Notes: generated by a model not told the origin, from the letters alone. Shown: positions 43 through 35,537, numbered from the stretch's first letter. The stretch is DNA of 64,000 bases from an uncultured Gammaproteobacteria bacterium (GCA_964619625.1 CAZUFD010000002.1:14582-78581); one strand, 5' to 3'. Program-made: numbers and translations.

Positions 43-873
43 ATGAAAACTACAGCCTTAACTTTTGCATTCGCTCTTGAATTCTTATTAATTCCCGCGT
101 TGCCTACCCAGGCTGCCGAAAGCATCAATTTATCCGTACCTTATATCCCCGAAGCGCCGGAAGGACTTATGGTAAAACCATGGAATAACTCATGCGAAGA
201 AGCGTCTACCGCCATGCTTGATGAGTATTATTTTGGCAACCGAAACCAGGGCGTTACTAAAACTAAAGCCAAACAATCCATTTTATACTATATAGATGTT
301 GAAAATAAATTGTTTGGCTACAATGGCAATACCAACGCGGCGGAAATGACAAAAGTGATAAATGAATATTCAAAATATTTTGAAGCTAAAATAAAAACTA
401 ACCCGACTTTGGATGATATAAAAAACGAACTAAAGGCCAGCAAACCGGTAATTGCCCTGCTTTATGGCTATAACCTGCAAAATCCTCGCATCCAATTTGC
501 TCGCAACGGATCATATTACCACACCTTCGTTATAAAAGGCTTTGATGATGAAAAAAAAGAATTTATCGTAAATGATAATGGCGACCTTAAACAAGGCCTT
601 GACTTGCGCTACTCGTATGATACAATCATGGGCGCTTTACGGGATTACGATCATAAAACCAGTAAAACCGTAAAACCTGCAACCGTACTTTTTACCAGCC
701 AGCGAATGCTGGTAAAAACTAAAGATAGCGGTCGGATTTATCTGATTAAAGATAATAAAAAACATCACGTGTCTTCTCCTCAAGTATTTAAAGATCGCAA
801 ATGGAAGTGGGGTTTTGTGATGGTGGTGGAGAAATCTTGGCTAGATAAATTCCAAGTCGGCACGGCAATATGA
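43..873 (+). CDS. Secreted protein with a papain-fold C39-like peptidase domain
   Basis: N-terminal signal peptide (MKTTALTFAFALEFLLIPALPTQA). A Cys motif PWNNSCEEAS and a later His in YYHTFVIKGFDD fit the Peptidase_C39-like family pattern. The family assignment comes from motif memory only. Confidence 0.5.
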   Translation: MKTTALTFAFALEFLLIPALPTQAAESINLSVPYIPEAPEGLMVKPWNNSCEEASTAMLDEYYFGNRNQGVTKTKAKQSILYYIDVENKLFGYNGNTNAAEMTKVINEYSKYFEAKIKTNPTLDDIKNELKASKPVIALLYGYNLQNPRIQFARNGSYYHTFVIKGFDDEKKEFIVNDNGDLKQGLDLRYSYDTIMGALRDYDHKTSKTVKPATVLFTSQRMLVKTKDSGRIYLIKDNKKHHVSSPQVFKDRKWKWGFVMVVEKSWLDKFQVGTAI

Positions 874-879
874 CATGAC

Positions 880-950
880 TCCGAGGTGGTCTAATGGTAG
901 GACAGCAGACTCTGAATCTGCTTATCTTGGTTCGAATCCAAGCCTCGGAA
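880..950 (+). tRNA. tRNA-Gln (anticodon CUG)
   Basis: Cloverleaf folded by hand: acceptor TCCGAGG/CCTCGGA, D-arm GTCTAATGGTAGGAC, anticodon stem GCAGA/TCTGC with loop CTCTGAA (anticodon CTG), T-arm TTGGTTCGAATCCAAG, discriminator A. The U1:A72 pair is typical of tRNA-Gln. Confidence 0.8.
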
Positions 951-1029
951 CAACTTATACACTATTGATTTTTTGCCTAAAAAGGAGTGTAATATACTTG
1001 CTTATCTTTTGGTAAGCAGGAGGAAATTC

Positions 1030-1359
1030 ATGGACACCCGAACTCGAACCATAGGCGCTGTCCAAGCCCTCATGGGTAGAGTGCTCCACCCGTGCGACGG
1101 CTGTCCCAACACAGAGCGTTCTCCGGAGTTCCAAGAGGAATACCGCAAGCGCATTGGCACGCTCTTCATGGTCTTTTACCAAGAAACCGGCATCGACTTG
1201 GCCGGAGAAGTAATCGCGCGCTTGGATATGCCGCTCGGAAAACGAAGCAATGGGCTCTATTGGCATCTGAAGTTTTGGCTAGCAAGCCAAATGCCTGCAG
1301 GCTCAAAAGAGAGGGCCTACTTCACTGAGGTAGACCACCAAAAAAAGCCTGAGGAATAA
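1030..1359 (+). CDS. Hypothetical protein in a GC-rich islet
   Basis: Strong RBS AGGAGG 7 nt upstream of the ATG. GC content is clearly above that of the flanking DNA. The ORF lies directly 3' of tRNA-Gln. No recognisable domain. The antisense ORF 955..1266 was judged less likely because it has no RBS. Confidence 0.4.
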   Translation: MDTRTRTIGAVQALMGRVLHPCDGCPNTERSPEFQEEYRKRIGTLFMVFYQETGIDLAGEVIARLDMPLGKRSNGLYWHLKFWLASQMPAGSKERAYFTEVDHQKKPEE

Positions 1360-1543
1360 CTCGTTCATTCAAACAACCTTCCGAAAGGAAAAATAAAAAC
1401 ATTTGCACTCTTGCTTCACGTAGGAGTGCAACAAAAAATCACTCGCACCCCTACTCAAGATCCTCTATATCTAGAAGACTTAAGCGGAGGAGACAAAAGA
1501 CGAGTGATTTTTTCGTAAACACTGAAAATAATTTTGAATAACA

Positions 1544-1580
1544 AAATAAAATAACTAAGGCCCCGCCGAGGCGGAGCCCA
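1544..1580 (-). terminator. Probable intrinsic terminator (minus strand)
   Basis: Imperfect hairpin GGCCCCGCC-GAG-GCGGAGCCC, followed on the minus strand by a U-rich tract. It lies just downstream of the stop of gene 1597..1902. Confidence 0.4.
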
Positions 1581-1596
1581 TTATCCATAGGGAGCG

Positions 1597-1902
1597 TTAA
1601 CCGACAACCTGCACATTTTCCAGGTTGCCACACATCCCTTTAACGAAATCTTCCACCGCATATCCGGGAACTAACTGCACAACTATGGTACGGATATCGT
1701 CAGCCAGAATTTCTGACTTCTCGAAGAATATCCTTTCATAGACCTCAAGCGTAACCGCCGGCAATATGATCTTCCTGACATTGTGCACTCCCAGTAAACA
1801 CGCCACCGCCCGTTTCCCCCGTAATGGAAGCGTAACCAGGACTTTGCATGGTTTTGGCGGCTGCGGCTCTGACTCTGTTTGGACAGTCTCTGGCTCTTGC
1901 AT
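1597..1902 (-). CDS. Hypothetical protein (GC-rich)
   Basis: 101-aa ORF with elevated GC content and a terminator hairpin downstream. No confident homology could be assigned by eye. Confidence 0.35.
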   Translation of the reverse strand: MQEPETVQTESEPQPPKPCKVLVTLPLRGKRAVACLLGVHNVRKIILPAVTLEVYERIFFEKSEILADDIRTIVVQLVPGYAVEDFVKGMCGNLENVQVVG

Positions 1903-2002
1903 GGCTTTTCTCCACCTCAGGATTTCGTTTTAACCACAAGAGCATACCACAAAAAAAGAACCCTGGCAAGAGTTTCTTTTAATATAAAAGTTTATCTAGA
2001 TT

Positions 2003-2761
2003 TTAACTCTTAAATTTTTTTAACTCTAGAAACAAGAACAGCGGAAATTCTTTTCTAGCCTTATCTTCGGCCAAAAACCGAGGGCCCTGCGTGGGCTGGC
2101 GATGCGAAATCCATTCTTCACACCTGCTTATGCCAAAGCCGTGTTTGGCAAACATCTTAACATACCATTGCAGCGAACGATGAAAAGAAACTGTTTTTTC
2201 CGATTTCTTTTGTCCCGGATGCATATCTATTTCTACTTGGGATTCAGATAAATATGCGTCCATGCGGCGGTACTGCACCCATTCTTTGTCATCCCATCCC
2301 CAACTGGATATTTTTGGCGCGCGAAAGGCCGGATGGTTTAAAACTAAGTATACGCTCCCCTTTTCTTTTAAAACTCTTGCGCATTCTTTTAAAACACCCT
2401 CTGCGTTTTGAATGTTTTGCAATGCCAAAGTTATTATAATCGTATCTATAGAGCCATTTTTACAAAAATCAATATTGTCTGCGGGTGAAACATGGTATTC
2501 TGTTTTTGTGTCGCGTTTTTTGGCAATTTGAATAAGTTCCGGTGAAATGTCGGAAGCAACTACTTTTGCGCCCTTAGTGCCAAAAATACGGGTAAAAAAA
2601 CCCTGGCCACAAGCCAGATCCAAAATAGTTTGGTTTTTATCTAAATTTATAGATCGCAACAGATTTGGCAAAATAACCTTAGTCTGAAAAGAATCATCGT
2701 CTTTTTCCAGCATGCTATCGTACCAATTGGCTACTTTGCCCCAGGAGGTATTTTTCTTCAC
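2003..2761 (-). CDS. Class I SAM-dependent methyltransferase
   Basis: Motif I ILDLACGQGFF and the general layout of Rossmann-fold methyltransferases. Confidence 0.75.
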   Translation of the reverse strand: MKKNTSWGKVANWYDSMLEKDDDSFQTKVILPNLLRSINLDKNQTILDLACGQGFFTRIFGTKGAKVVASDISPELIQIAKKRDTKTEYHVSPADNIDFCKNGSIDTIIITLALQNIQNAEGVLKECARVLKEKGSVYLVLNHPAFRAPKISSWGWDDKEWVQYRRMDAYLSESQVEIDMHPGQKKSEKTVSFHRSLQWYVKMFAKHGFGISRCEEWISHRQPTQGPRFLAEDKARKEFPLFLFLELKKFKS

Positions 2762-2861
2762 AAAAATTTGTTTATATCACCCGTATATCTTATTAAAAAT
2801 AAGCTATCCAGTCAATTAGGCAGGGTTTGCCAAAAACGCTGAAAAGTGCTATTATTTGCCC

Positions 2862-3713
2862 ATGACAACCGTAATTGATGGTAAAAAAATTGCTCTAAAG
2901 ATAGAAAAACAAACTGCCAAACAAGTGGCTGCCTTAAAAAATAAAGGCATCACGCCCAAACTGGCGGTTATTTTAGTTGGAAATGATAAACCGTCTCGCA
3001 CTTACATAAAAAAGAAAAAAGAAGCTGCGCAGCGCGCGGGCATTAATTTTGCCTTGCACGAATTTTCAAAAAATATTTCCAAAGAAGAATTAGTTAGTGC
3101 CATACACAAAATACAAAAAGACCCAGAGCTGACCGGCCTCATTATCCAACTGCCACTGCCGGAACGATTATACAAACCAGAGGTGCTTAACGCGATTTCG
3201 CCCGCTATTGATGTGGACTGCTTAACCGACGCCAATATCGGCAAACTGGTCATGAAAAGCAATCATATAGAACCGCCGACTCCGTGGGCAGTTATAAAAA
3301 CCTTAAAAGAAATAAAATTTAATCTGGTGGGTAAAAATGCCACGATTGTGGGCGCGGGCGCACTGGTCGGCAAACCTTTGGCCATAATGCTGGTAAACGA
3401 ACTAGCCAGCGTTACCACCTGTAATAGTTATACTAAAGATATAAAAAAGAAATGTTTGGAAGCGGATGTAATTGTCTCGGCCGTAGGCAAACAAAATTTA
3501 ATCAAAGCCGATATGGTAAAAAAAGGCGCGGTTGTGATTGATACCGGTATTGTATATATAAACGGCAAAATGTACGGCGATGTGGATTTCCAGCCGGTTT
3601 CCAAAAAAACAAGCTTCATTACCCCCACTCCGGGCGGCATTGGCCCAATTACGGTGGCCAAACTTCTTCTAAATACCGTAACTTGCGCGAAAAAAATAAA
3701 TAAGGTAAAGTAA
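2862..3713 (+). CDS. folD: Bifunctional methylenetetrahydrofolate dehydrogenase/cyclohydrolase
   Basis: Conserved FolD blocks: SRTYIKKK, GLIIQLPLP, VGAGALVGKPLAIML and TPTPGGIGPITVA. An alternative TTG start lies at 2856. Confidence 0.9.
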   Translation: MTTVIDGKKIALKIEKQTAKQVAALKNKGITPKLAVILVGNDKPSRTYIKKKKEAAQRAGINFALHEFSKNISKEELVSAIHKIQKDPELTGLIIQLPLPERLYKPEVLNAISPAIDVDCLTDANIGKLVMKSNHIEPPTPWAVIKTLKEIKFNLVGKNATIVGAGALVGKPLAIMLVNELASVTTCNSYTKDIKKKCLEADVIVSAVGKQNLIKADMVKKGAVVIDTGIVYINGKMYGDVDFQPVSKKTSFITPTPGGIGPITVAKLLLNTVTCAKKINKVK

Positions 3714-3736
3714 AAAATAACAGAGGGGGTGTACAA

Positions 3737-3934
3737 ATGGCGCTCAGAGTAAAAGACCTGTACTGCGCTGGAATTATCAGCCCAAAGAAAGGCGGGGGTT
3801 CCTGTCCGGGAATACTCCAACACCTGGCGACAAAGCAGATCGGCATTGTCGTCTTTTGCCCAACATGCAGAAAAAGAAAGACTGTGGAGGGGTTTGCAAG
3901 CTACCAACAGCTTGTAGAAAAACGGGGCAAATAA
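3737..3934 (+). CDS. Small Cys-rich hypothetical protein (possible zinc ribbon)
   Basis: 65 aa with four Cys (C10, C23, C41, C44) and a purine-rich RBS-like stretch upstream. It could be spurious if the region is actually a structured RNA. Confidence 0.3.
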   Translation: MALRVKDLYCAGIISPKKGGGSCPGILQHLATKQIGIVVFCPTCRKRKTVEGFASYQQLVEKRGK

Positions 3935-4180
3935 TGCCGTTAGAGTTCGACGGGCACTCTTCAACACCGTCAACTCGAATCTATAAATTTATTAATTAAC
4001 AATAATCCACACCTTTATTTGACACTCAAAAATTTAGGTGCTAGTCTAACTTTACAATTTAACTAACATATATCTGTGGAAGTGAGGTTCAATTCCTCCA
4101 CTGTGCCGCAACGGTAAACTCATGCAATTAGCTTGGGAAGTCCGGTCTTCAGATATAGGCCCCATAATATGGGGTTAGTC

Positions 4181-4243
4181 CCGAGCAGGAAATAAAATAT
4201 TTTATATTTTTTGAATCTTTCCCGCTCGGCAAAGATTTTTTTT
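4181..4243 (+). terminator. Long hairpin with a U-tract (terminator-like)
   Basis: 12-bp stem CCGAGCAGGAAA / TTTCCCGCTCGG with one mismatch, an AT-rich loop of about 25 nt, then CAAAGATTTTTTTTG. Confidence 0.4.
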
Positions 4244-4269
4244 GTTAGCGCGCATAATTAAAACTACAT

Positions 4270-4857
4270 ATGCCCAATTCAAACAAACTCCTTCACCGAC
4301 TATTAATTTTTCTAATTTTTATCTCGGTTTTTGCCGCAACTTACTTATTCCTTAACCCAGATAATAATAACGCCTCTCCACCTTTATACCCTGCTCCCAC
4401 AAACACTGCCGCCACCCTTCAAACTGAACCAGGTTTAAAACCGGCGATGCTAAAAAATAAAACTAGCGATGGTAACGAAAAAACTGTAATTAGCCCCACA
4501 GGAACAAATACCACCTCCAACACCGCTCCTTCTTCCCCACCGCCTCCGACCAACTCAACCGAAACTATACCCGTTACATTCAAAATTGAAGACAAGGAGT
4601 ACAGTCCAACCGTAAAGCCGGGCGCTACCGCTTATGAAGCAATGGTTGCATTACGAGAAAGCAAAGATATCTCGTTTTCTACCAAAGTATTTTCCGGCCT
4701 GGGGCATTTCGTAGAAGAAATCAATGGCCAGAAAAATAGTCCGTCTAGCGGTTTCTACTGGACATTTTATATAAATAACGAGGAAGCAAAGGTTGGTGTC
4801 TCAAATTATACCCTTAAACCAAACGATTTAATTACATGGAAGTACGAAAATAAATAA
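4270..4857 (+). CDS. Membrane-anchored DUF4430-domain protein (transcobalamin-beta-like fold family)
   Basis: N-terminal TM helix, a Pro/Thr-rich linker, then a C-terminal region (GHFVEEINGQK...GFYWTFYINNEEAKVGVSNYTLKPNDLITWKY) matching the DUF4430 pattern. Confidence 0.65.
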   Translation: MPNSNKLLHRLLIFLIFISVFAATYLFLNPDNNNASPPLYPAPTNTAATLQTEPGLKPAMLKNKTSDGNEKTVISPTGTNTTSNTAPSSPPPPTNSTETIPVTFKIEDKEYSPTVKPGATAYEAMVALRESKDISFSTKVFSGLGHFVEEINGQKNSPSSGFYWTFYINNEEAKVGVSNYTLKPNDLITWKYENK

Positions 4858-4862
4858 TTTTT

Positions 4863-7103
4863 ATGAAGATACAGAACAAATTAGGGGGATTAACGTATTT
4901 TATATTATTAACAGCGTTGCTATGGGCTTTACCGGCCCTGGCCAACACAACCAGCTCTACTCCTGATATAAATACTTCTACTCCGGAAATGGAACTGTCT
5001 ACCAGCACACCAGCCGTGTCTTTACCCACTTCTACTCTAACGCTTCGTTACGAAGATCAAATTATCTGGACAGGCAGCCTGGAACTGACAAGCACCCTAT
5101 ATCATGACGCAATAAATAATTTGGATTATCAACTTACTACTAATACAGTATTTTCTGCTCTCGTTTTAGCAGACCAGCAAAGCGATGTTTTTACTATTTC
5201 AGATGCCCAATATAATTCCGGTTTTGACAGTTTTTACCTTGCTTGCATAAACATTTCGCCAACTTCTACCCAAAATCCCTGCTACAACTGGAATTATGTG
5301 GTAAATAATAATTACCCAAGTATTGGCATGGATAAATATTCGTTAACTGGCGGTGAAAGTATATACGTCTACTTCTCTACTCCTTGGAAAATTTCCGCCT
5401 CCACTACCACATTTCCGCTAGACACAACCACAACTCTGCAAACCTGGCGCTATCAATTTGATAATCTATCGCAACCGTGGGTATCTGATGAAAACAATTT
5501 GGTGGATATTTCTGTTCCCAACCCTTCTTCAACCGGTTGGTGGGATCAAACGATTACGGTTACCACAACCCAAACCAGCGCCAGCGGCACCGTAGATTTT
5601 AAATTTTCCGCAACCGGTACATATTATGCCAAAATTATTTCTTTAGATTGGACCAAATGGAGCAATCCCATAACCCTTACTGTACTTGAAAATTCTTCTA
5701 GCACAGATTCAGGAACACCTCCGCAAAATGGGGGCGGTTCCGGGCCGGCTGCGGCGGTAAGCACAAGCGAAATAAACAACGCGGTGCAAAAAATATTAAA
5801 CTTTTTGAAATCAAAGCAATTAGATAGCGGCGCGATTGTTGATTTGTCTACTTCAGATTGGTCGGCTATGTCCTTTGGCGCACATGGTACTTATGCCCAG
5901 GATGTACGAACTTCTACATTCTCTCTGTATGATTACTTAAATGTAACTATAGTCACCTCTACAACTCAAACACTCAACAGCTGCACTGAATATGCCAGAC
6001 ATATACTAGGCTTACTTAGTGCCGGATTTACCAAAACAAACAGCCAAATAGTTGACCTAAAAAATAAAATTACAACGGAATGTTTAGCTGGCGGACAAGT
6101 GGGTCAAGCGGGAATAAATGATGATATCTTTATTTTAATGGCTCTGCTGGCTACCAACGAGGGCGCTTCAAATGAACTTGTACAGGCAGCCGTAGCAACG
6201 ATTAAGGCCGACCAGCAAGCAAACGGCGCATTTACCTGGAATGGATGGCCGGGACAAGATGTTACCGGTGCCGCTATTAACGCTCTTAAATATGCTTCTA
6301 CCTTTGGCGTGGCCGTAGACGAAACAATTTTCCAGCAAGCAAAAAATTATCTGCATACCACTCAATTAAACGATGGCGGCTGGGGCTTTGATACTACTTC
6401 CGATCCGCTTACTACAAGTTGGGCCATGTACGGCTTAAACGCGCTTGGCGAAGGTCAAACAGGATGGACAAATACTCAAAATAAAAACCCATGGTCACTC
6501 CTCGTAAATAATGTGAATGATTCGGGCTATTATGAGTCTCCTTGGAGCGCGGATGGTATAGATTGGTTTGCCACCAAACACGCTGTGCCAGCGTTGTTGG
6601 GCAAATCATGGCCAATTATTATCAGCATTCCGGTTGCTCCCGCGGCTCCGGCTTCTTCAGGTTCGGGTTCAAATCCTGTTGTAGCAAGCACCTCGACTCA
6701 AACTGAAACTACCAGTATAATAAGTACTACAACCATAGCAACCTCTACCCCTGCCACAACTACCTCTGAGCTGGTTAATACAGATTCAGAGCCTCAAGGT
6801 GAAATCTTGGGTATAAAAATTGAAAACACAGCTAAACCGGTAAAAACTGCTCGCACTATTTCCGCCAAACCAAAAAGCTTGGCACAAGCTGAAAATAAAA
6901 ATATAAACGCTGAGACGAGCACAACTATATCTACAAATAAAGACTTGGATACAGAAAAAAATTTAGAACTAAATCAAAAAAATACCGGCTCTGATTCATC
7001 TGCTTTAAGGTGGATGATACAAAAACTTCTAGTAATTTGTCTTCTTGCCGCCGGGGCTATTAGCCTATACCTTGGATTTAACCATTTAATGAAGAAAAAA
7101 TAA
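4863..7103 (+). CDS. Large surface protein: DUF4430-like domain plus prenyltransferase/terpene-cyclase-like alpha/alpha-toroid repeats, with a C-terminal TM anchor
   Basis: Signal peptide and Ser/Thr-rich linkers. A DUF4430-like block (CYNWNYVVNNNYPSIGMDKYSLTGGESIYVYF). Repeated DGGWG / SDWSAMS / DGIDWF motifs typical of squalene-cyclase/prenyltransferase repeats. A C-terminal hydrophobic helix followed by KKK. Confidence 0.7.
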   Translation: MKIQNKLGGLTYFILLTALLWALPALANTTSSTPDINTSTPEMELSTSTPAVSLPTSTLTLRYEDQIIWTGSLELTSTLYHDAINNLDYQLTTNTVFSALVLADQQSDVFTISDAQYNSGFDSFYLACINISPTSTQNPCYNWNYVVNNNYPSIGMDKYSLTGGESIYVYFSTPWKISASTTTFPLDTTTTLQTWRYQFDNLSQPWVSDENNLVDISVPNPSSTGWWDQTITVTTTQTSASGTVDFKFSATGTYYAKIISLDWTKWSNPITLTVLENSSSTDSGTPPQNGGGSGPAAAVSTSEINNAVQKILNFLKSKQLDSGAIVDLSTSDWSAMSFGAHGTYAQDVRTSTFSLYDYLNVTIVTSTTQTLNSCTEYARHILGLLSAGFTKTNSQIVDLKNKITTECLAGGQVGQAGINDDIFILMALLATNEGASNELVQAAVATIKADQQANGAFTWNGWPGQDVTGAAINALKYASTFGVAVDETIFQQAKNYLHTTQLNDGGWGFDTTSDPLTTSWAMYGLNALGEGQTGWTNTQNKNPWSLLVNNVNDSGYYESPWSADGIDWFATKHAVPALLGKSWPIIISIPVAPAAPASSGSGSNPVVASTSTQTETTSIISTTTIATSTPATTTSELVNTDSEPQGEILGIKIENTAKPVKTARTISAKPKSLAQAENKNINAETSTTISTNKDLDTEKNLELNQKNTGSDSSALRWMIQKLLVICLLAAGAISLYLGFNHLMKKK

Positions 7104-7107
7104 ACAT

Positions 7108-7629
7108 ATGCAACGCTACCTTCCCGCCTTTCTTCTTATCATCTTAGGCATCTCAACCCGACTCCTTCCTCACCCGGCAAACTTTGCGCCAATCGCGGCC
7201 ATTGCTTTGTTTTCGGGGGTATACTTGCCAAAAAAATTTGCCATTATTATACCTATGGCCGCCATGTTAGTAAGTGATATTATTTTAGGCTTTTATCTCT
7301 GGCCGGTTATGTTATCTGTATATGCTACTTTTGCGCTTACTGGTATTATCGGTTTAGTAGTTCAAAAACACAAAAAATTAAGCACCATACTTAGCGGCAC
7401 ATTGCTGGCGAGCATCCTATTCTTTATCATCACTAACTGGGCGGTATGGGCATTTGGAACCATGTATCCGCACAATCTAAACGGTTTAACACAAAGCTAT
7501 ATAGCGGCTTTGCCATTCTTTAAAAACACCGTGCTTGGAGATTTATTTTATACCGCCTTGCTTGTTGGCAGTATGGAAGCAATTCTGGCTCTACAGGCCA
7601 AGAAAAACAGCTCTTTGGCTCTGGAATAA
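7108..7629 (+). CDS. Small polytopic membrane protein (ECF-transporter S-component-like)
   Basis: 173 aa with 5-6 predicted TM helices. The ATG lies 5 nt after the stop of the upstream DUF4430/prenyltransferase gene, so the two are probably co-transcribed. Confidence 0.55.
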   Translation: MQRYLPAFLLIILGISTRLLPHPANFAPIAAIALFSGVYLPKKFAIIIPMAAMLVSDIILGFYLWPVMLSVYATFALTGIIGLVVQKHKKLSTILSGTLLASILFFIITNWAVWAFGTMYPHNLNGLTQSYIAALPFFKNTVLGDLFYTALLVGSMEAILALQAKKNSSLALE

Positions 7630-9036
7630 TTACGCGTAAGGCAATTCGGCCGGCGGTTCTTCTTTCGGCGGCTCTGGCAGAGGCGGCGGCATCTTTCTCT
7701 TCAATGGACTTTCAGCGAGTTCTTCAATAGGCAAATTGATAGGCGGTTCGGCTCTCTTGCCACCGGTCTTTTGCAGCAGCGGAGTCTTAACGAGCGGCAG
7801 CGGGAAGTGCCATAAGGTAGCCAGCTCTTCCGTATTTAAAACATAAGGGTTTTTTCCCATTTTCAATTTGCGTTTTTTATAGGCTTTAATGAATTTATTT
7901 TTAAGTTCGATAATTTTAGCATTTTTAAAAAAATAGTGAGCGTTAGTTGCCGCAACCGGCACCAAGGCATTTCGGCCAGTAAAATTAAACTGATTTATAG
8001 AACCAACAAATCCGTCTAGACAACGGCCGGGATTAAACACCTCTTTTTTAGCCGCGTAGATAACGCGCATTTTTGATTTAAATCCAACCTTTGATATTTT
8101 ATCTTCTATGGCCGCGATCGTATCTCGGCCTCTTGGGGTCAGATCAGAAACTTTGCCGGGTGTTTCGTGTTCTTCATGACCGCCATGATCCTCGGAAGGA
8201 CCTTTGATCGCGTTAAGCAGTTCGCTGGCAAAAACATTTATCGCTTTAACCACAAAGATCTGATCGTGGTGGGGCGCTTTATTTTCAATAATTTCTTTTA
8301 CGAGTTTTATGCCTTTTTCTTTCCAGCTGCTTGAAGTTGGTTCAATAATAATTTGAAACCATAAATTCTCGCCCGCGCCGATACGGGTAAAATTTTCCAA
8401 AATAGAAGCCATCGGATCGTTAAACTTAAGCTCGTCGGGCATAATGTTATGCTCAAATTCCTCATAGGTGCGAATTGGATACGGATCAGCCGCGACCAGA
8501 CCAAATTCTATGCCAAACATGTTGTGCGTTTCGTTTGGAAACTTGCTCGGAATCAAACTTACGTAATCTTCTACTTCGGTAATTTCTGCCATTGGATACT
8601 GCGCATAAACAGCTGCTTCCACCAGATCACGATGCGCGATTTCGGTATAGATCAAGAATTGAATATATCCTTCTAAACTGATTATTTCCAAACTAAACCA
8701 GCGTTGCTTTGCCCCGCCCCAATATTTTTGCCCGAAATTTGGCTCATCCAAAGCACCGCTTAAATGAGCAAATATCTGCTCTACCGCTTTTGGGCTTTGT
8801 ACCGTATCCGGCGGCACATCTACAGCCAGCACGACCCATTGCCAGTGATGGACATTTAAATCTTGGCGTAGATCAAGCCACAAATGCGCGCCAACGAAAA
8901 AAAACACCAAGGCCAAAAATGCCCAACCAAACATAACAAAAACTACCCGCGTTAATTCCGAGGAAGGCAAACTCAAGATCGTTCCCCAAAAAGAAAAATC
9001 AATTGTAAATCCAAATGGCAAACCTTCTAAACCCAT
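7630..9036 (-). CDS. Hypothetical membrane-associated protein with a Pro-rich C-terminus
   Basis: 468 aa with N-terminal hydrophobic segments and a C-terminal PPPLPEPPKEEPP stretch. No catalytic motif recognised. Confidence 0.55.
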   Translation of the reverse strand: MGLEGLPFGFTIDFSFWGTILSLPSSELTRVVFVMFGWAFLALVFFFVGAHLWLDLRQDLNVHHWQWVVLAVDVPPDTVQSPKAVEQIFAHLSGALDEPNFGQKYWGGAKQRWFSLEIISLEGYIQFLIYTEIAHRDLVEAAVYAQYPMAEITEVEDYVSLIPSKFPNETHNMFGIEFGLVAADPYPIRTYEEFEHNIMPDELKFNDPMASILENFTRIGAGENLWFQIIIEPTSSSWKEKGIKLVKEIIENKAPHHDQIFVVKAINVFASELLNAIKGPSEDHGGHEEHETPGKVSDLTPRGRDTIAAIEDKISKVGFKSKMRVIYAAKKEVFNPGRCLDGFVGSINQFNFTGRNALVPVAATNAHYFFKNAKIIELKNKFIKAYKKRKLKMGKNPYVLNTEELATLWHFPLPLVKTPLLQKTGGKRAEPPINLPIEELAESPLKRKMPPPLPEPPKEEPPAELPYA

Positions 9037-32540: not shown

Positions 32541-34949
32541 TTAGTCTTCATCTGCCAACTCAACCCCAGCCGGATCAAGGCCACGTTTGGCCGGGCCGTG
32601 CAAAAGAGAACCATCTTTATTAAACCTAGAGCCGTGGCATGGACAATCCCAAGTTTTCGCATCATCATTCCAGCCAATAGTACAGCCAAGGTGCGGGCAA
32701 ACCGCCGAAAATGTTTGCACCTTTCCACCAGTTTTAACTACCGCCACTTTTTTACCCTCCAATTCCACCACCTCACCTTTGTCCTCCTGCAAATTAGCAA
32801 ATTTTTTATCTTTTTTCATAATTGAAATGTTGGTTTTATTATTTTTTGGCCAAACCAAAGTTCGGTCGCAAGCAAACAAAGTTTGAAAAGAATTAGTTTT
32901 ATTCATTACCAAATCCGCGGCTATGCTGCCACCAAAAAATCCTTGGGCTGTGCCATTGCCCGCCCAGCCGGTTAGAAAAATAACATTATTGCCATAAGCC
33001 GAATGCGGACCAACCAAAGGCAAGGTATCGGCCGTAGAAAAAATAGATCCTTGCCAGCTATTTATTATGTTAAACTGATTTTTCTCTCCCGCCAAATCTC
33101 GTAGCCACGTTTCCAATTTTTCATGCGGATTTCCTTTTGGTTTTGGTTCGTCTACAAACCAATCCTCGCCGCCCAAAAGAAATTCACTTTCCCCTACCGA
33201 ACGAAAATAATGATATGGATCTAAATCGTCGCAAAAAAATCCATTTCGCAGCGGCGGCTGGCCGGAAAACTTTATATCAATGACATAACTTATAGAACTG
33301 CGAATAAGGCTAGCGACTTTTGAAAAAAATTTATTAGATGGAATACCGGTTGCAACGATAAGTTTTTCTGTCACTATACCCCCCTCTTTGGTTTTTAAAT
33401 TGATTGTATCTCCCAAAGAAATATCTGTTACTTCGCTGTTTTCAAAAAATACCGCGCCATTTTTTACGGCCTTCTCCGCCAAAGCCAATAAAAATTTACG
33501 GATATGAAAAATACCGTCTGAATTATGCCTGCGATACGCTTGGCTTATTCCAACTCCCAACGCTCTGCTTGCTTTATCTTTATCTAACACCTCAAACCCG
33601 GAATCTTTTTCTTTAAGCCGATTAAAAGTTTTAGAAAAATCTGCTAATGATTTTTTATCTGTTTGCTTTGTAAAACAAAACGCATCAATATCCTGCCAGT
33701 CGCAATTAATTTTTTCTTCAACGATTGTTTTTTTAAATAAACTAATCGCAACATCGCTCGCCTCCCAAGCTTTTAAAGTCGCATCTATGTTTTCTAAAAA
33801 CCTGGTGGCACAGGCGGTAGAGTAGCCTGAATCTCCGCTGCCAATCGTGCCCGCCTCAACCACGGCCACTTTAACTCCGGCTTTAGATAAAAAATATGCG
33901 GCCGAAACTCCGGCCATTCCCCCGCCGACAACAACCGCATCAAAATTATTATCGCCTTTAAGCGTCGGAAAACGCGCTGTTGCCGGAACATCTCTAAACC
34001 AATAAGAAGGCTCATCTGAAATTTTTGCTACCTCTTTGCCACACGAACAATGTACGCATTTTTTCTGTTTCTCTTTGCCGAGCCCGCCTGCAACGCTTGC
34101 GCCGGCATTACGGGCAGGCAAAAACCACAAACTGGCAACCAGATTTCCGACGAGCAGTCCGTATACTAACGGATCAAAACTAAATAAATTAAATGTACGA
34201 GTTAGATACGTCATAACCACTGCCGCCACCGCCACCAAAGCCGCATAAAATATTTCTTGTTTTTTATTAACAAAGATTGAAGTCAAAGGCTCAACCAGCA
34301 TGACCGTAGCAAAGAAAAGCACTACTCCGGTAAGTAAATTGGCAGACAGCAGCCGTGGTAATAAATTTATAGTTACACCATCCGCAACAGATAAAACACT
34401 AAAGGCAGCCGCATACACAAGCAAAAATGTTCCGGTGATATGCCAGCGATTTTGCTTCCAAAGAATAATAAGCGCGGCCAAAACGATAAAAATAAATAAC
34501 AAAACTGCTGGGTCAAACAAATTAAATTTTACGAGTGACGGCACTTGAGCTGCGGCCACAGCCCACCAAGCGGCAATGGGCGTAAAAATACCCACAATCG
34601 CCAAGGCGCTGGAGGCCGGATTAAACACGTGGCGATTTTTACCAAAATGAAGCATCTGTTTGGTGGCCACGGCCAAGAGCGGCAGAAGAATAATAAAAAT
34701 CCAGCGCGGATTGGGTAAAGCGACAATCGCTAAAACAAATCCAGATATCCACGATGAAACCGGAAGATACCAAACTCGGTCGCGAACATAAGTCCAAAAC
34801 AAATCGTACAATGAATAAAGCAATACAATTAAAAGACTGCTGCCAAACATTTTCAAATCTTTAAAATATAAAGATGAAAACAAAAGCAACAGGCCCAAAT
34901 AAAAAACCATGAAATATTTAATCGGCAAACGATTCTTTAAACTGACCAT
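32541..34949 (-). CDS. Fusion protein: RnfD/NqrB-like polytopic membrane domain + FAD-dependent (DAO-family) oxidoreductase + C-terminal Rieske [2Fe-2S] domain
   Basis: The N-terminal ~300 aa have ~8 TM helices and the RnfD/NqrB blocks [22 protein letters not shown] and [10 protein letters not shown]. The centre has a GxGxxG Rossmann fold ([22 protein letters not shown]) of glycine-oxidase/DAO type. The C-terminus has Rieske boxes CPHLGC ... CPCHGS, including the second Cys of each box as in bc1/b6f-type Rieske clusters. Confidence 0.85.
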   Translation of the reverse strand: [802 protein letters not shown]

Positions 34950-34970: not shown

Positions 34971-35537
34971 CTACTTAACAATAACTGTGCCGCGCATGGA
35001 ACCATGGAAAGAGCACGTATAATTATAGGTACCGGCCGAAGTAAACGTGTGGCTAAATGTTTGCCCAGAAGACATGGCACCGCTACTGAACGAACCGTTG
35101 TCGGCAGTGACTGTGTGTGGCGCGCCGTCGTTATTGGTCCAAGTTATAGTATCACCTGCGGAAATCGTAATACTGTTTGGTTGGAAAGAAAATCCAGCAA
35201 TAACGGCGCTAACTTTTTTAGGCGCAGGCGTTGGCGCAGGCGTTGGAGTTGGTTGAGGAGTTGGAACCGGAGCGCTTTGTGTAGGCTGGTCTGGGGCGGT
35301 GGACGGCTCAGATTTGGTTGGCGCGGTATCGGTCGGCTTGCTTGCCGGTTCGCTGGCAGATGAAACAGCTGGGGCAGATGTTGGCAAACTTCCACCAGCT
35401 GGTTCTGACGAAGGCTGGCCTTGCGTAGGCGCAACTACGGCATCTGTATTTGTACTTGTGTCTGATTTAACACAACCGGCACCCATTAACACTACGCCTA
35501 CGAGCGCTGCTAACAAAGAAAGTTTTGTTTTATACAT
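34971..35537 (-). CDS. Lipoprotein cupredoxin (plastocyanin/amicyanin-like type-1 blue copper protein)
   Basis: Lipobox LMGAGC, a Pro/Thr/Ala-rich linker, and C-terminal cupredoxin ligands in the pattern H (APHTV) ... C-x2-H-x4-M (YTCSFHGSMRGTV). Confidence 0.85.
   Translation of the reverse strand: MYKTKLSLLAALVGVVLMGAGCVKSDTSTNTDAVVAPTQGQPSSEPAGGSLPTSAPAVSSASEPASKPTDTAPTKSEPSTAPDQPTQSAPVPTPQPTPTPAPTPAPKKVSAVIAGFSFQPNSITISAGDTITWTNNDGAPHTVTADNGSFSSGAMSSGQTFSHTFTSAGTYNYTCSFHGSMRGTVIVK

Follow-up and report, generated by a model that had tools for sequence, protein, structure and literature searches.

Within the 64,000-nucleotide stretch CAZUFD010000002.1:14582-78581 (the window in what follows), three open reading frames (ORFs), here g1, g2 and g3, follow one another in the same direction, spaced 5 and 4 nt apart. 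They encode an anchored DUF4430 protein, a large surface protein that combines a DUF4430-like domain with an α/α-toroid, and a DUF6580 membrane protein, and they are preceded by an adenosylcobalamin (AdoCbl) riboswitch. The names carried by near-identical database proteins identify the organism as Candidatus Magasanikbacteria, of the Patescibacteria or Candidate Phyla Radiation (CPR), and the locus is very likely a cobalamin-riboswitch-controlled operon with which this tiny-genome bacterium captures and imports vitamin B12 or other corrinoids. An initial annotation had described three co-directional, tightly spaced genes here, and the ORF coordinates (Table 1) match it exactly. The extent it gave, 4270-7629, holds for the ORFs and not for the 5′ start, which moves to ~4053 because the riboswitch and its expression platform precede g1.

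The intergenic gap upstream of g1 is 556 nt long and holds the AdoCbl aptamer, directly 5′ of the gene and above the Rfam gathering score, so the search for cobalamin riboswitches that the initial annotation had proposed gave a positive answer. The TACAAT hexamer just 5′ of helix P1 is probably the −10 box of the promoter. The Rfam AdoCbl aptamer is also found upstream of the orthologous operons of loci L002 (51.5 bits), L020 (58.9), L031 (64.7) and L034 (52.0); that of L001, at 49.9 bits, is just under the gathering score of 50, and the core can be recognised by eye in two more loci, L003 and the distant L004. A Woesebacteria locus, L072, has at the equivalent position a riboswitch of another cobalamin class, AdoCbl-II (41.5 bits versus 36.5). 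In an alignment of 30 species the core is invariant and helices P1, P3 and P6 covary: over 23 pairs, paired cells make up 89.6% as against 42-53% when the partners are slid, compensatory double changes occur in 15 of the pairs, and none of 500 shuffles reached the observed covariation score.

The platform 3′ of the aptamer is, by its sequence, of transcription-attenuation design. Its invariant element, GUCCCGAGCAGGA, provides the 5′ arm of a 12-bp hairpin that is a candidate equivalent of the regulatory helix P13, with the role of anti-terminator, and the Rfam P13 helix aligns to the equivalent hairpin in L031. The 3′ arm of this hairpin is overlapped by the 5′ arm and loop of a weak terminator-like hairpin followed by a U run. 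A clean terminator, with stems stronger than those of the window, is present in 28 of the 37 loci that carry GUCCCGAGCAGGA, and 21 of these 28 show significant complementarity between the element and the 5′ arm and loop of the terminator. The element is invariant though its pairing partners vary. A conserved partner for it within the aptamer was looked for, and what emerged, in most species, was a partial complementarity to helix P6 on its 3′ strand. Judged by these complementarities, GUCCCGAGCAGGA can pair either with the P6 3′ strand or with its P13 partner and thereby compete with the terminator. Complementarity for a kissing interaction between L5 and L13 was sought, and none is evident.

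The product of g1 has a single hydrophobic segment, at its N-terminus, and no cysteine. Pfam and hydropathy agree with the initial annotation in placing an anchor, a linker and a C-terminal DUF4430 domain in that order, and DUF4430 is the C-terminal domain of the transcobalamin (TCN) proteins (PMC4350170). The further description of g1 as lipoprotein-like does not hold, since a protein without cysteine cannot be a lipoprotein, and a lipoprotein anchor was rejected on this ground. The protein is similar to the DUF4430 protein encoded beside CbrT in Lactobacillus helveticus (BLASTP E=1e-7). ECF-CbrT (PDB 6FNP), an energy-coupling factor (ECF) transporter, is the B12 transporter of Lactobacillus delbrueckii, where the gene cluster is nrdJ-cbrS-cbrT-pduO (Santos et al. 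2018, PMC5997447); transport of cobalamin and of cobinamide by CbrT has been demonstrated (PMC5997447). L. helveticus has class II ribonucleotide reductase, DUF4430, CbrT and PduO in that order, and an L. delbrueckii-type contig has DUF4430, CbrT and PduO. The gene at the cbrS position thus encodes a DUF4430 protein and is therefore taken as CbrS; evidently the Lactobacillus DUF4430 gene beside cbrT is CbrS, and so a pair of DUF4430 protein and S-component stands at an experimentally validated B12 locus.

For g2 the initial annotation had proposed a secreted protein with a second DUF4430-like block, prenyltransferase-type toroid repeats and a C-terminal anchor. The signal, the anchor and the toroid are borne out, the first two by one hydrophobic segment at each terminus and the toroid by Foldseek and by an AlphaFold2 (AF2) model built on a 75-sequence alignment, the folded parts of which mostly have a predicted local distance difference test (pLDDT) value above 90. 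The second DUF4430 stays below threshold in g2 itself (21.8 bits against a cutoff of 23.8, aa 111-172) and is backed by the family: in a Pfam scan of a 21-member set of g2 relatives, 17 match DUF4430 (best E=1.6e-13). A hidden Markov model (HMM) made from the g2 N-terminal domain alone finds g1 at E=1.9e-6 together with 64 small DUF4430 ORFs, and the N-terminal domain is likely homologous to DUF4430. When the Pfam scan suggested by the initial annotation was made, g1 was above threshold for DUF4430 and g2 for SQHop_cyclase_C, of the toroid enzymes that comprise class II terpene cyclases and prenyltransferases (PF13243, PF00432), marginally (26.8 bits versus a cutoff of 26.1, aa 427-536), this being the sole above-threshold Pfam match of g2. 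The NCBIfam cyclase models score far under cutoff (22.5 versus 322.7), and neither DxDD nor DDxxD occurs anywhere in g2, which makes cyclase or prenyltransferase activity unlikely.

Six of the same 21 relatives match PF01122, the family of cobalamin-binding proteins of eukaryotes, with a best E of 1.5e-7; one of the six (P0060) was searched against PDB sequences and gave nothing, and the g2 family profile run against PDB found only cyclases, MstE and the thioester-containing domain (TED) of complement, transcobalamin not being among them. In structure comparison the toroid matches haptocorrin (4kki, E=8.9e-6, target-normalised TM-score (TMt) 0.46) and transcobalamin (2bb6, E=4.4e-5, TMt 0.47), with similar scores for the TED of complement/α2-macroglobulin, squalene-hopene cyclase, drimenyl-diphosphate synthase and MstE. 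In the toroid a set of polar and aromatic residues is nearly invariant (D332/W333, Y377/R379, N419-D421, D466/T468 and T518/W520); in the AF2 model these sit within or at the start of alternate helices, a placement which suggests that they line one mouth of the barrel.

The third gene belongs to DUF6580 (PF20221, 164.7 bits) and to no other Pfam family. Its product is polytopic by hydropathy, lacks cysteine, and is modelled by AF2 (pLDDT 88, predicted TM-score 0.80) as a six-helix S-component fold. The best Foldseek match is 4huq_S (TM-score 0.66/0.69, root-mean-square deviation 3.4 Å), followed by TmRibU, FolT, PanT and YkoE; E-values are weak throughout, and every match outside the S-components has a TM-score below 0.35. 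The proposed likeness to an ECF-type S-component thus stands for fold and topology, and not for membership of a classical S-component Pfam family, DUF6580 being distinct. A CbrT fragment matches PF12822 and not DUF6580, a few CbrT relatives match both models, and g3 matches PF20221 only, so that neither membership of PF12822 nor orthology with CbrT was found. The link to CbrT, which cannot be proved by PDB sequence searches alone, was settled by hhalign of the CPR DUF6580 alignment against a CbrT-family alignment (92.4% probability, E=5.1e-7, 104 columns), in which the signature motifs fall opposite one another, RLLPHPANFAPI with RI..IPIPNVQPVT and SDI.IGFY.W with SNI.LGFGIW. This alignment supports a remote homology of g3 to CbrT, the S-component specific for B12, and g3 is the putative corrinoid translocator. 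Invariant polar residues are R18, H22, N25, D57, N110 and N140. The 173-aa start is favoured because homologs are 171-180 aa long and share an invariant N-terminal RLLPHPANF motif; the deposited NCBI protein (P0084), of 134 aa and 99% identical over 77% coverage, appears to be N-terminally truncated.

Table 1. Features of the riboswitch-controlled operon and of the proteins that it encodes; positions are those of the window, aa positions those of the respective protein.
Feature	Position	Strand	Extent or evidence
TACAAT, −10-like promoter hexamer	4053..4058	+	just 5′ of helix P1; nearly invariant in the 30-species alignment
AdoCbl riboswitch aptamer, Rfam RF01482 (clan CL00101)	4060..4177	+	52.8 bits vs gathering score 50; E=7.8e-7 over the whole window
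Aptamer helix P1	4070-4076 paired with 4150-4156	+	
Aptamer invariant core, GGAAGUGAGGUUCAAUUCCUCCACUGUGCCGCAACGGUAA	within 4060..4177	+	
B12-box-like AAGUCCGGUCUUC	~4139-4151	+	
GUCCCGAGCAGG	within riboswitch/platform RNA, 4053-4270	+	
Invariant element GUCCCGAGCAGGA	4178-4190	+	directly 3′ of aptamer; present in 37 loci
P13-like hairpin	4181-4229	+	12 bp; 5′ arm formed by GUCCCGAGCAGGA; fold predictions
Weak terminator-like hairpin and U run (U8)	4215..4243	+	AUCUUU/AAAGAU stem, 10-nt loop; read from sequence
g1 ORF	4270..4857	+	195 aa
g1 N-terminal hydrophobic anchor	aa 5-31	+	hydropathy
g1 linker, S/T/P/N-rich	between anchor and DUF4430	+	~80 aa
g1 C-terminal DUF4430 (PF14478; transcobalamin β-domain type)	aa 113-195	+	Pfam 60.1 bits vs cutoff 23.8, match aa 118-193
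g2 ORF	4863..7103	+	746 aa
g2 signal peptide	aa 1-27	+	ALA/N cleavage-type site (cut after ALA)
g2 DUF4430-like domain	aa 55-175 (5025-5387)	+	AF2 β/α domain 56-171
g2 β-sandwich	aa 176-278 (5388-5696)	+	AF2 175-275
g2 disordered linker	between β-sandwich and toroid	+	AF2
g2 α/α-toroid	aa 298-590 (5754-6632)	+	AF2: 12 helices, 301-578, pLDDT >90
g2 S/T-rich disordered stalk	6633-6995	+	~120 aa
g2 C-terminal transmembrane anchor	aa 712-745 (6996-7097)	+	
g3 ORF	7108..7629	+	173 aa

When GTDB species were scanned at one genome each, at least 540 genomes proved to carry a DUF6580 relative; the best 80 DUF6580-bearing genomes are essentially all metagenome-assembled genomes (MAGs) of Patescibacteria, from many classes. 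Gene layouts, in which D denotes DUF4430, T toroid and S DUF6580, were counted by HMM-based annotation at 83 Patescibacteria DUF6580 loci. A DUF4430 gene, a toroid gene or both lie directly upstream of DUF6580 on the same strand at 77 of the 83. The window's own layout (D, D-T, S) is seen at 20 loci and the minimal pair (D, S) at 22; D, D-T, D, S accounts for 11 and D-T, D, S for five, and at 13 a separate toroid protein is still encoded between the DUF4430 and DUF6580 genes (D, T, S), the other loci having rarer or truncated layouts. Two DUF4430 copies plus a toroid, which the initial annotation thought unusual, is therefore the commonest layout, indeed the norm, among relatives in the clade. 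The triad recurs in L001-L003, of which L003 is flanked by entirely different genes, and the very distant L004 retains the riboswitch together with DUF4430 and toroid-protein genes. The check on neighbourhood conservation thus came out in favour of the linkage, which is kept across ~80 species, loci with unrelated flanks included. An nhmmer profile of the aptamer finds it 5′ of 48 of the 49 toroid-containing clusters with intact upstream sequence.

In one CPR sublineage the toroid gene is separated from the DUF4430-DUF6580 pair by a gene for a ~183-aa protein with a C-terminal transmembrane segment and no Pfam match (L049, L058, L078, L079 at 4977-5528, L080, and also L069), and this protein may be an extra component of the system. 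A CPR MAG has a SAM-I/IV (S-adenosylmethionine) riboswitch (L075, 4372-4482, + strand; 41.9 bits versus a gathering score of 41.1) ~1.1 kb ahead of a DUF4430-DUF6580 pair of the minimal kind.

In CPR lineages other than that of the window, genes of B12 metabolism stand next to the DUF4430-DUF6580 pair and run in the same direction. They encode NrdJ, the AdoCbl-dependent ribonucleotide reductase, at five loci (TIGR02504, 586-655 bits versus 400), the corrinoid adenosyltransferase BtuR/CobO at four (PF02572, E=8e-60) and B12-binding radical SAM proteins at six. The idea of a surface module for corrinoid scavenging and uptake, already voiced in the initial annotation, is strongly supported by these neighbours together with the domains, the upstream riboswitch, the linkage and the DUF4430-CbrT pair of Lactobacillus.

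As to how such an operon could work, g2 would be exported and stay anchored in the membrane through its C-terminal helix, on a flexible S/T-rich stalk. The corrinoid would be gripped by the DUF4430-like domain of g2 on one side and by one mouth of the toroid on the other, as the β and α domains of transcobalamin enclose their ligand. The g1 protein, a counterpart of Lactobacillus CbrS with its DUF4430 on a tether, would either complete the binding site or shuttle the ligand to the membrane, where g3 would bind it and translocate it by the toppling mechanism of S-components. Energy coupling for g3 may come from a shared ECF module encoded elsewhere, or g3 may need no such module, as is the case for BtuM and solitary BioY, S-component-like proteins able to work without one (PMC6072759). 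The riboswitch would tune expression to intracellular AdoCbl; by analogy, the operon is presumably off when AdoCbl suffices, the usual B12-OFF logic being assumed.

Several results pull the other way. The window holds no B12-dependent enzyme, and genes for ECF A or T components are absent from it and, at 84 loci, from the 6 kb around the cluster; ORFs for ABC ATPases number two in ~1 Mb of loci, neither of them adjacent to the cluster. Group II ECF modules are usually unlinked to their S-component, as is the case for the Lactobacillus locus L085, and because that locus too is without linked ECF genes their absence here is uninformative. Among minimal DUF4430-DUF6580 pairs a riboswitch was detected in four of 19 and is not detectable in 15, and a naive reading of the platform could have ligand induce read-through. 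PF01122 has no match in g2 itself at E≤0.1, Foldseek with full-length g2 confirms an α/α-toroid and fails to separate the toroid families, and the domain order of g2 (DUF4430-like, β-sandwich/Ig-like, toroid) is the reverse of that of transcobalamin. For g3, the single-sequence phmmer match to CbrT (6fnp_A) is remote, at E=0.018, and the family profile against PDB does less well than the single sequence (E=1.4). Binding or transport of a ligand by DUF6580, bacterial DUF4430 or toroid proteins is a predicted function.

The ligand could be heme or another tetrapyrrole, as was argued for lsa1836-1840 of Lactobacillus sakei, where a deletion mutant had reduced heme uptake and heme was docked at the modelled α/β interface (bioRxiv 10.1101/864751). 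Import of heme is nevertheless very unlikely here, given that a cobalamin-specific riboswitch controls the operon in the window and in dozens of relatives, that the neighbours elsewhere are NrdJ, BtuR and B12 radical SAM genes and not heme enzymes, and that the closest characterised homolog of g3, CbrT, carries cobalamin and cobinamide (PMC5997447). Somewhat less improbable, though still quite unlikely, is that only g1 and g3 act in B12 uptake and that g2 is an unrelated extracellular enzyme or envelope protein sharing their transcript. Its one above-threshold Pfam match is to a cyclase family, the database name of g2 is 'terpene cyclase/mutase family protein', some sources call its relatives terpene cyclase, Foldseek shows no preference for transcobalamin over cyclases or TED domains, and the 22 loci with a minimal pair and no toroid gene mean that the toroid is not essential. 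However, g2 lacks the catalytic motifs, has a single toroid in place of the two-domain architecture of cyclases, is predicted to be exported and tethered on a stalk, and bears a DUF4430-like domain of its own; to this can be added the PF01122 matches of its relatives, the near-constant riboswitch ahead of toroid-containing clusters, and the loci at which a stand-alone toroid gene keeps its place between the DUF4430 and DUF6580 genes.

A role in sequestering corrinoids at the surface, whether for storage or in competition with or theft from a host, or else export or salvage of a corrinoid precursor by g3, has little to recommend it. The direction of DUF6580 transport is an assumption, and high-affinity surface binders of B12 in Bacteroides (BtuG) are known to serve competition besides uptake (PMC6143338). 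The tight translational coupling with an S-component-fold gene, at gaps of 4-5 nt, speaks against it, as do the homology of g3 to an importer and the cobalamin-consuming enzymes and adenosyltransferase adjacent in other lineages. CPR genomes are not known to encode corrinoid synthesis, which also counts against such a role. Capture followed by import of corrinoids is thus retained as the reading of the operon.

Other genes near the operon or elsewhere in the window merit mention in their own right. Between folD and the riboswitch promoter is a Cys-rich ORF of 65 aa (3737-3934, + strand; C10, C23 and CPTC at 41-44) that is without a Pfam match and could encode a zinc-ribbon protein; a small Cys-containing ORF is at the equivalent place in relatives (L001, ~4831-5075; L002, 4694-4924). 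Convergent with g3, and with its stop codon abutting that of g3 so that there is zero intergenic space, is a gene for a 468-aa DUF8128 (PF26449) protein (7630-9036, − strand). The family is found downstream of DUF6580 at 29 of the 83 loci, mostly with secDF; as a partner in the system it was rejected, since a convergent gene that travels with secDF and is absent from L003 likely reflects mere synteny. Further away, an 802-aa fusion protein (32541-34949, − strand) seems to combine a polytopic N-terminus with an oxidoreductase part of FAD/NAD type and, at the C-terminus, a Rieske-type motif, CPHLGC...CPCHGS; it adjoins a gene (34971-35537, − strand) for a protein with a cupredoxin-like C-terminus, HTV...CSFHGSM. 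These features were read by eye, and for the redox proteins of a CPR genome the two look unusual. About 1 kb (955-1970) between a tRNA gene (880-950) and a methyltransferase gene has only short overlapping ORFs and no Rfam match at the gathering threshold. In L004, a 23S rRNA gene at 227-3826 is interrupted or flanked by ORFs for LAGLIDADG homing endonucleases, indicative of the rRNA introns typical of CPR bacteria.

CPR bacteria, or Patescibacteria, are ultra-small symbionts, for the most part uncultured, in which the majority of biosynthetic pathways are missing, and their means of acquiring cofactors are poorly known. The literature searched for DUF6580, for B12 uptake in CPR bacteria, for Patescibacteria with ribonucleotide reductase and for CPR with ECF transporters had nothing relevant. 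While the components and the concept are already known from Firmicutes, what is new is that the system extends across CPR bacteria, that CbrT-like proteins have a DUF6580 branch, that β, Ig-like and toroid parts are fused in an anchored receptor, and that the system is tightly associated with a compact riboswitch subclass whose expression platform has an unusually conserved element. The combination of DUF6580, DUF4430 and toroid looks like the standard B12 scavenging route of Patescibacteria. A concrete function is thereby proposed for DUF6580, for bacterial DUF4430 and for a protein routinely misnamed 'terpene cyclase', an assignment that extends to at least 540 species genomes and connects each half of the human B12 carriers with proteins of bacteria; B12 dependence also offers a handle for the co-culture or cultivation of CPR organisms. 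A much bolder proposal, speculative and on balance doubtful, would make this the principal B12 acquisition of the whole Patescibacteria radiation, free of any ECF ATPase, with the ligand, taken from the host or the community, passing from a long-stalked two-domain receptor to a tethered DUF4430 shuttle and on to a solitary S-component; its proteins would represent the bacterial stock of eukaryotic transcobalamin, intrinsic factor and haptocorrin, and its P6/P13/terminator relay may have a polarity other than that of textbooks.

Transcobalamin, intrinsic factor and haptocorrin are made of two blocks, an α/α-toroid and a DUF4430 β domain, of which g2 has the first and likely the second as well, and the proposed sandwiching of ligand between two domains is modelled on transcobalamin. 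In transcobalamin the α domain is N-terminal and the β domain C-terminal with a short linker between them, whereas g2 has the opposite order with a β-sandwich and a disordered linker inserted; g2 is membrane-tethered, the transcobalamins are soluble, and its identity to 4kki and 2bb6 is 10-14%. Another precedent is lsa1836-1840 of L. sakei, which encodes secreted transcobalamin α- and β-like proteins with a complete ECF transporter and for which heme is argued to be the ligand (bioRxiv 10.1101/864751). In the window, too, β-like proteins of DUF4430 type and an α-like toroid of prenyltransferase type, predicted to lie at the surface, are encoded with a protein of S-component fold, the L. sakei proteins being proposed to pass a tetrapyrrole to their S-component, and CPR loci in which DUF4430 and toroid are separate genes have a layout that mirrors the one in L. 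sakei. The L. sakei operon has its own ATPase and T component, while the window operon has neither; the window operon fuses the β-like and α-like parts in one anchored protein and has a separate DUF4430 protein in addition, and it is under a B12 riboswitch where heme is the ligand assigned in L. sakei.

BtuM resembles g3 in being a small membrane protein of S-component fold that is implicated in B12 uptake and has no ECF module encoded nearby. It differs in that a conserved cysteine binds cobalt, g3 having none, and in occurring mostly in Proteobacteria together with BtuB; PDB searches with the single g3 sequence and with its family profile gave no BtuM match. With BtuG and BtuH of Bacteroides (PMC6143338), what is shared is the concept of riboswitch-linked, high-affinity corrinoid capture at the surface feeding a membrane transporter; the folds are unrelated, BtuG being a β-propeller, and these are outer-membrane lipoproteins that feed the TonB-dependent BtuB, whereas g1 and g2 have single-membrane anchors and no lipobox. 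The nearest counterpart is the Lactobacillus nrdJ-cbrS-cbrT-pduO locus, in which, as here, a small DUF4430 gene is immediately upstream of, and co-directional with, a gene of S-component fold (L085, L087), and whose NrdJ and adenosyltransferase neighbours recur at some CPR loci. There are differences: g3 is DUF6580 and CbrT is PF12822, the adenosyltransferase is of BtuR type in CPR and of PduO type in Lactobacillus, the window has an AdoCbl riboswitch where none was detected at the Lactobacillus loci, and it has the additional large toroid-containing protein. The system is a CbrS/CbrT-like one, extended by a transcobalamin-like capture protein.

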